DNA of 64,000 bases, taken from assembly GCF_003334785.1 (NCBI RefSeq), contig NZ_QOWV01000002.1; one strand, written 5' to 3'. The position numbers were made by a program, and so were the translations under genes. Under the pieces are notes generated by a model, which saw only the letters and a program-made list of their open reading frames with translations, searched no databases and was not told the origin of the DNA. Shown piece by piece: positions 63,678 through 64,000 of the stretch; position 1 is the stretch's first letter, and each line of letters begins with the position of its first letter. Source of the stretch: Escherichia coli (GTDB lineage Bacteria > Pseudomonadota > Gammaproteobacteria > Enterobacterales > Enterobacteriaceae).

Positions 63678-63799
63678 TCAGTCGATGATGCGCATAATGG
63701 CGCTGCATTCCGGATGCTGCAGGGCGTAATCCCGCAACCGGTAATAATGGACCGTCATGGCATAATTCTCCGTACGACAGGCATGATGACTGTACGTCA

Positions 63800-64000
63800 T
63801 CAGACAGGCGGCAATATCCGGTCAAACACGCCCACCACCTCGTAAGCCCCTTCGATAACTTTCTCCACTACATTTCCCCGGTGTGGAACACGCACTTCCC
63901 CCAGAGACTGGCCACAGACGCCCCCGTTCTGGCAGACGAACCTGAAGTAACCCGGCAGCATCTGGTAGCTGGAGGTACCGTCATGAGAGTTGAGCAGAAT
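63800..64000 (-). CDS. C-terminal part of a prophage-island protein whose 5' end lies beyond the window (possibly DUF932-like; tentative)
   Basis: Minus-strand frame open from the window edge: ...ILLNSHDGTSSYQMLPGYFRFVCQNGGVCGQSLGEVRVPHRGNVVEKVIEGAYEVVGVFDRILPPV*; no start in window. Confidence 0.4.
   Translation of the reverse strand: MLLNSHDGTSSYQMLPGYFRFVCQNGGVCGQSLGEVRVPHRGNVVEKVIEGAYEVVGVFDRILPPV

Follow-up and report, generated by a model that had tools for sequence, protein, structure and literature searches.

A 757-bp deletion joins remnants of a DUF932 gene and an ardB antirestriction gene upstream of yeeS in a CP4-44-type island of Escherichia coli

A deletion between the DUF932 and ardB genes

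The main finding of this work is the identification of a deletion scar at the right edge of the window, by which we mean the whole stretch of 64,000 nucleotides of Escherichia coli DNA that was analysed. With high confidence, the edge feature is the scar of a 757-bp deletion that joins a DUF932 gene to an ArdB gene in a decaying island of the CP4-44 type, and comparison with intact islands revealed that the features at 63678-64000 are real, but as remnants and not as genes. When positions 63150-64000 were used as an 851-bp megablast query against 5,426 complete E. coli genomes, a set that does not contain the window's own genome and in which the best match over 24 kb reaches 98.5%, most of them matched in two pieces spanning 1,608 bp, and intact islands were found in about 3,795 of the 5,426. 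The allele of the window is rare: a 101-bp probe for the exact junction detected it in this set only in AST198 (NZ_AP043606.1) and JKHS016 (NZ_CP147059.1), both from Japan.

Base-level alignment to strain PSJ-07 (L001), in which the extra DNA sits between the DUF932 gene (273 aa) and the antirestriction gene (159 aa) just upstream of yeeS, placed the missing 757 bp at L001 6187-6943, with an identity between window and L001 of 100% left of the junction and 99.87% right of it. The window follows L001 up to ...TTTGACCGGATA and identity restarts at TTGCCGCC..., the parental sequences being TTTGACCGGATA/GAGGAG on the left and GCCGCCGGTA/TTGCC on the right (slashes mark the breaks here and below). 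Compared base by base with intact L001, the junction is a 2-bp overlap, TA (63816-63815, minus strand), which is common to both parents and lies inside an imperfect repeat, CCGG(A)TA and CCGGTA. The deletion takes out DUF932 codons 164-273, 110 codons in all, an 81-bp spacer and codons 1-114 of ardB, and DUF932 codon 163 is joined out of frame to ardB codon 115.

The sequence-only reading of this DNA had described a minus strand open from the window edge down to a stop near 63800 and had proposed that it encodes the C-terminus of a possibly DUF932-like protein. The open frame was found as described (64000 to 63803, with a TGA stop at 63802-63800; translation ILLNSHDGTSSYQMLPGYFRFVCQNGGVCGQSLGEVRVPHRGNVVEKVIEGAYEVVGVFDRILPPV, then the stop), and its family was also recognized correctly, as the 66-aa frame of the window matches Pfam PF06067 over model positions 67-132 of 227 (E 1e-20). 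It is not a C-terminus; instead, it is an internal DUF932 segment, residues 102-163 plus LPPV, cut at codon 163. The gene fragment (63815-64000, minus strand; codons 102-163 of 273) is 100% identical to L001 6001-6186, and the out-of-frame tail, translated as LPPV and then TGA, occupies 63800-63814 on the same strand. The intact DUF932 protein matches model positions 2-227 of 227 (E 6e-51); no complete domain in one frame is present in the window, from which model positions 133-227 are absent, and the stub is without 42% of the domain model. The expected continuation of the frame past the window edge was confirmed in AST198 and JKHS016, where it stays open for 303 nt more, up to an ATG, to give a 167-aa stub. 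Because the window ends inside the fragment, its 5' part and start are deduced from these two near-identical genomes, and in the window's island the DUF932 start would probably lie about 303 nt beyond 64000; the fragments of the window and AST198 differ in one residue, Gly in the window and Cys in AST198. Two presumed complete forms of the truncated DUF932 product, both with this Gly, had no exact match when looked up. The K-12 proteins YfjQ (CP4-57) and YafZ (CP4-6) belong to the same Pfam family as the window fragment, which, unlike these family members, is truncated at codon 163 of 273. DUF932 has no solved relative, and a literature search for DUF932 together with antirestriction gave a single paper, on an unrelated subject.

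On the other side of the junction, the 45 in-frame codons at 63815-63681 match the Pfam Antirestrict family (PF03230) over model positions 48-92 of 92 (E 5e-16), and their translation, IAACLM...RIID and then the stop, agrees in every residue with the C-terminal end of the 159-aa protein that other genomes carry intact. That intact protein matches model positions 1-92 of 92 (E 5e-37) and is ArdB: its entire length matches PDB 2WJ9 (E 5e-100), and it is related to KlcA (2KMG). ArdB and KlcA block Type I restriction in vivo. The remnant (63678-63815, minus strand) consists of codons 115-159 plus the stop; its own start codon is absent, no full-length ArdB frame with its own start (about 140-160 aa) is present, since codons 1-114 are deleted, and the same frame has a TGA 8 codons before Met120. 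The remnant cannot adopt the ArdB fold. Pfam was used for both families because NCBIfam has no models for them, returning 0 matches for DUF932 or antirestriction even with the intact proteins.

We propose that the ancestor had five genes in a row, namely DUF932, ardB, yeeS, yeeT and then cbeA-cbtA, and that the two ends were joined at the shared TA by illegitimate, not homologous, recombination. Past the out-of-frame join, the DUF932 frame enters four junk codons (LPPV) and ends, and ardB is left without a start. The products of the DUF932 and ardB remnants are both probably non-functional, and the antirestriction (ArdB) activity of this island copy appears to be lost. A residual role for the 167-aa DUF932 stub or for the 40-aa peptide described below is conceivable. 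The yeeS gene and the genes downstream of it are probably still transcribed from upstream. The deleted DNA holds no sigma-70 consensus promoter, and when the deletion was checked for promoters and terminators the sole such signal noted was a weak terminator-like hairpin downstream of the DUF932 stop codon; an Rfam scan of 60400-64000 found no family.

Recurrent deletion end-points within ardB

Exact protein look-ups of the remnant ORFs across public assemblies showed one and the same ardB tail joined to many different upstream genes, and three recurrent right ends (S1, S2 and S3) were recognized within 36 bp of ardB (L001 6907-6943, codons about 103-115; end-point loci L017-L020, L025-L034 and L185-L193). 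At S1 (ACGG/TA/ACCGCG) there are 8 distinct left partners: dynamin, DUF932, IS2 orfB, the DMT transporter gene at two sites, the phosphotriesterase gene, yeeR and the GTPase gene. S2 (CCCGG/AA/GCCGCC) has 3, namely two Ag43 sites and one dynamin site, and S3 (GCCGG/TA/TTGCC) has the single left partner that makes the junction of the window. Left ends fall at 10 or more different places at least, and the overlaps at S1-S3 are always of 2 bp, TA or AA, with G+C-rich flanks. The DUF932 break of the window (CCGGA/TA/GAGG) recurs in two alleles with S1 as its right end, and the yeeR break at S1 is very common (875 index blocks) and is the same as the yeeR/yeeS break of K-12. This shared yeeR break is GGTAAAGTA/ (K-12, L003 12287-12310; L012 7788-7801; L185 about 2480-2500). 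The K-12 yeeR/yeeS join itself carries 2-3 filler bases (GA/GAG), and both of its parental sites have CCCGG beside the break.

These observations suggest an alternative for how the deletion arose, in which its ends were not placed at random by an illegitimate event but were chosen by a site-preferring process. This could be, for example, an enzyme whose cutting or strand exchange leaves a 2-bp stagger at TA or AA where the surroundings are rich in G+C, or it could reflect a site prone to breakage or pausing; the same few points in ardB and DUF932 would then be used repeatedly. The reuse of S1-S3, with 8 and 3 left partners at S1 and S2, is in line with such a process, as is the reuse of both the DUF932 break and the yeeR break of K-12. 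A shared base pattern over 15 sites aligned on the overlap also speaks for it: TA was found at 11 and AA at 4, G at position -2 in 11 of 15, and G or C at +4 in 14 and at +5 in all 15, the positions of the pattern including the deleted sides. Even allowing for the narrow ascertainment interval, eight partners at one nucleotide would by our own estimate be very improbable under uniform placement, at roughly (1/18)^7. However, the sampling is biased, as the ORF look-up sees only right ends that fall between two in-frame Met codons (21- and 33-bp intervals), and the base preferences were noticed post hoc. Neither a transposon end nor an inverted-repeat partner was found at the breaks, the hairpins predicted there are ordinary (z -1.1 to -1.5), and the annotation of AST198 and JKHS016 lists no recombinase gene in the island. 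Moreover, the same gene also has deletions that end at other points and show ordinary overlaps of 2-3 bp, and S1-S3 junctions were seen in none of 120 metagenome copies. This unbiased sample is too small to measure a hot spot: 102 of its copies are intact, 15 stop at contig ends and about one is truly truncated. In control look-ups, longer remnants gave ends at scattered places, along with frameshifts and scaffold gaps; several apparent junctions obtained with the 77-aa and 101-aa remnants proved to be scaffold gaps of N and were discarded. We therefore regard a site-preferring origin as possible but doubtful.

Extended homology between partner sites is absent for most pairs, and no common k-mer at a fixed offset, as expected for a Type IIS or Type III enzyme, was found among the sites. 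A gyrase-like four-base stagger was considered and rejected: the products keep the -1 base of the left partner and the +2 base of the right partner, and since these bases are always kept, a 2-bp overlap fits and a 4-bp overlap does not.

It is equally tentative, and somewhat improbable, that the junction of the window is one product of an undescribed deletion hot spot lying within 36 bp of ardB in CP4-44-type islands. If this were true, the decay of these islands would be shaped by a fragile site or by an activity that cuts or exchanges strands at preferred sites, and the event behind the textbook CP4-44 layout of K-12 would be included. The recurrent end-points leave the verdict unchanged that the edge feature is a deletion scar.

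Break points are reused by further deletions of this island as well. In AST198 the dynamin/patatin fusion (L005 17432-17434, compared with L001 791 and 3565) has a TG overlap, and other strains (L052, L063) have its patatin site, GAGCCC/CTG/ACAG, fused to ardB at position 6771. The phosphotriesterase site GAGGGAA/TA/GCGCC has two different right partners (L034 and L006; L006 about 3964).

Small open reading frames and decay of the island

Between the stop of the open frame and yeeS, a short ORF had been described whose stop overlaps the yeeS start region. The ORF is present (MTVHYYRLRDYALQHPECSAIMRIID, 63758-63678, minus strand, 26 codons), and the placement of its stop was approximately right: the TGA at 63680-63678 adjoins an ATG at 63677 and is separated by 15 nt from the yeeS start at 63662, the start chosen by the NCBI pipeline on identical DNA. 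This ORF is the tail of a 40-codon ORF (63678-63800, minus strand; in the ORF list, with a PF03230 match in public assemblies) that begins at the ATG at 63800, and this ATG and the stop of the DUF932 hybrid frame overlap as ATGA. With 72 ORFs of at least 20 codons overlapping these 4 kb, the 26-codon ORF alone is not above chance; it rises above chance because of its homology to Antirestrict and to the C-terminal end of the full 159-aa protein. It was rejected as a gene, since it corresponds to the last 26 codons of the beheaded ArdB gene, Met134-Asp159, plus the stop, and the 40-codon ORF starts at the internal Met120. Both ORFs arise because the ardB remnant happens to hold two internal Met codons.

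Alternatively, the short frame of 26 or 40 codons could be a genuine gene for a small protein or a leader peptide, with its translation coupled through the ATGA to the stop upstream, and could help to deliver ribosomes to yeeS. In favour of this, the ATG of the 40-codon ORF shares the ATGA with the stop of the truncated DUF932 frame, the distance from the end of this ORF to the yeeS start is 15 nt, and automatic gene callers report the ORF. Nevertheless, it is identical to ArdB residues 120-159, which belong to a full-length ArdB in thousands of genomes, it is separate only where ardB is cut or frameshifted, the junction that creates it here is present in just 2 of the 5,426 complete genomes, and NCBI annotates this 40-aa stretch as a pseudogene. 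Every occurrence examined lies inside a full-length ardB or beside a deletion, a frameshift or a contig end, and none stands alone as a small-protein gene. Such a gene is thus very improbable, and the ORFs are best read as pieces of a truncated ardB.

Public pipelines call the 40-aa ArdB remnant (63678-63800) as a gene with a PF03230 match, and ArdB remnants of 52, 59, 77 and 101 aa in other strains are likewise called as separate genes with the same match. These 40-, 52-, 59-, 77- and 101-aa gene calls are annotation artefacts of truncated or frameshifted ardB genes.

Following the ardB remnant, the next gene of the same operon-like module is yeeS (63186-63662, minus strand), an intact 158-aa RadC-like JAB-domain gene. 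Its protein scores 149.1 bits with NCBIfam TIGR00608, above the curated cut-off of 133.85, and is the same as WP_001186773.1 of AST198. The yeeT gene (DUF987; 62902-63123, minus strand) and the antitoxin gene cbeA (62460-62828, minus strand) are also intact, as judged from their ORFs and the annotation of AST198. The CbtA/CbeA type IV toxin-antitoxin pair is not complete: cbeA is intact, and the toxin gene cbtA (61998-62371, minus strand) is a pseudogene in which a 1-nt deletion at 62152/62151, changing GGTGCGTACC to GGTGCTACC in the alignment to K-12 cbtA, shifts the frame after codon 73. The gene is annotated as frameshifted in PSJ-07 and AST198. In PSJ-07 the same cbtA frameshift accompanies an intact DUF932-ardB region, and the frameshift is therefore older than the 757-bp deletion. 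The island copies that share the junction also carry a dynamin/patatin deletion fusion and a frameshifted GTPase gene. The island is a decaying element.

Further to the left, a PduV/EutP-family fragment (61010-61366, minus strand; K-12 yoeF) and a transposase-domain fragment (about 61260-61430) lie between yeeW and tmaR, both as in K-12. A segment of 163 bp at 61264-61425 has an inverted match of 88% identity near the left island end in AST198 and JKHS016.

Carriers of the junction and relation to other CP4 islands

AST198 and JKHS016 carry the junction base for base as in the window, together with the same other lesions of the island, and AST198 and the window share 99.97% identity over 6,864 bp, a match whose left limit in the window lies at about 57137. 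In contrast to the window, AST198 has a P22-like prophage beside dacD (L005 26800-40101) and JKHS016 has a Mu-like prophage inside yeeS (L004 20575-40101). In both genomes, NCBI annotates DUF932 as incomplete and missing its C-terminus and the antirestriction gene as incomplete and missing its N-terminus, so that both halves are already annotated as pseudogenes in near-identical genomes. The same 167-aa product was found on at least eight independent Logan and ENA contigs, with several short-read assemblies among the carriers, and the junction is therefore not an assembly artefact. A collapse or chimera of repeated island copies, which could be imagined for a DUF932-ardB-yeeS module with a median of 3 copies per genome and frequent breaks inside ardB in short-read contigs, is extremely unlikely given the identical junction in two independently finished chromosomes and at least eight contigs from other samples, and flanks that are collinear with the single-copy chromosomal tmaR-yeeA-sbmC-dacD.

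The sequence-only reading had further suggested that the gene content differs from the K-12 CP4-44 layout, in which yeeR precedes yeeS, and that the island may be a different member of the CP4 family. The first part is borne out, since yeeR is not immediately upstream of yeeS here and K-12 homology starts only at window position 63638. The second part is not: the island occupies the CP4-44 locus, between cobU and tmaR(yeeX)-yeeA-sbmC-dacD, and has the same backbone with other cargo. The right flank in the window (yeeW, the PduV/EutP fragment, tmaR(yeeX), yeeA, sbmC and dacD) is that of the CP4-44 locus, and the left flank, cobU, was seen in the junction carriers AST198 and JKHS016, as in K-12. 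By this comparison, the window island would carry a GTPase-dynamin/RdcB-patatin cargo instead of flu-yeeR. That the open frame might be yeeR was ruled out, as tblastn and blastn searches with K-12 yeeR gave no match in this island type.

The K-12 CP4-44 island (flu-yeeR-yeeS-yeeT-cbeA-cbtA-yeeW) is 99.4% identical to the window DNA from yeeS codon 9 to beyond yeeA. In K-12, a truncated yeeR is fused to yeeS codon 10 after a deletion of its own, of 3,357 bp, which removed the yeeR 3' end, irmA, DUF905, DUF932, ardB and the yeeS 5' end, whereas the window keeps a full-length yeeS together with the DUF932' and 'ardB remnants. This deletion agrees with the published description of K-12, in which yeeR is truncated and irmA, aec70 and aec71 are missing (PMC6480617). 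The K-12 yeeR/yeeS junction was found in only 384 genomes, mostly K-12 derivatives, and at the same locus CUVET23-CCU12 has a GTPase gene, Ag43, a full-length YeeR (838 aa), IrmA, DUF905, DUF932, the antirestriction gene and yeeS. The yeeR-yeeS layout of K-12 is thus lineage-specific and is a separate deletion of the common DUF932-ardB-yeeS backbone.

CP4-57 and CP4-6 were also found to carry DUF932 (yfjQ and yafZ) and a block of antirestriction, RadC-like, DUF987, antitoxin and toxin genes, and a position upstream of this block is common to the DUF932 gene of the window and those of other CP4-type islands. The CP4-57 block yfjX-yfjY-ypjJ-yfjZ-ypjF has been described as one operon, lfgABCDE, with a promoter upstream of the first gene (PMC10846083; PMC5371832). 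It is a homologous five-gene unit (antirestriction, RadC-like protease, DUF987, antitoxin and toxin), from which the unit of the window differs in that its first gene is beheaded and its toxin gene frameshifted.

Taken as a whole, the feature is ordinary gene decay of two known families and not a new gene, and the edge ORFs belong in the annotation as two pseudogene fragments, not as genes; a first caution is that gene-calling software lists the 40-aa remnant among the genes. Further work might be worthwhile only on the recurrent end-points, which, if confirmed, would provide a natural data set on the placement of illegitimate deletions in E. coli islands. For the CP4-44 family, a second caution is that the K-12 island, often taken as the reference, derives by deletion from a layout whose common ancestral order is DUF932-ardB-yeeS. 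The island copy of the window has lost its antirestriction and toxin genes and has kept yeeS, yeeT and the antitoxin gene.
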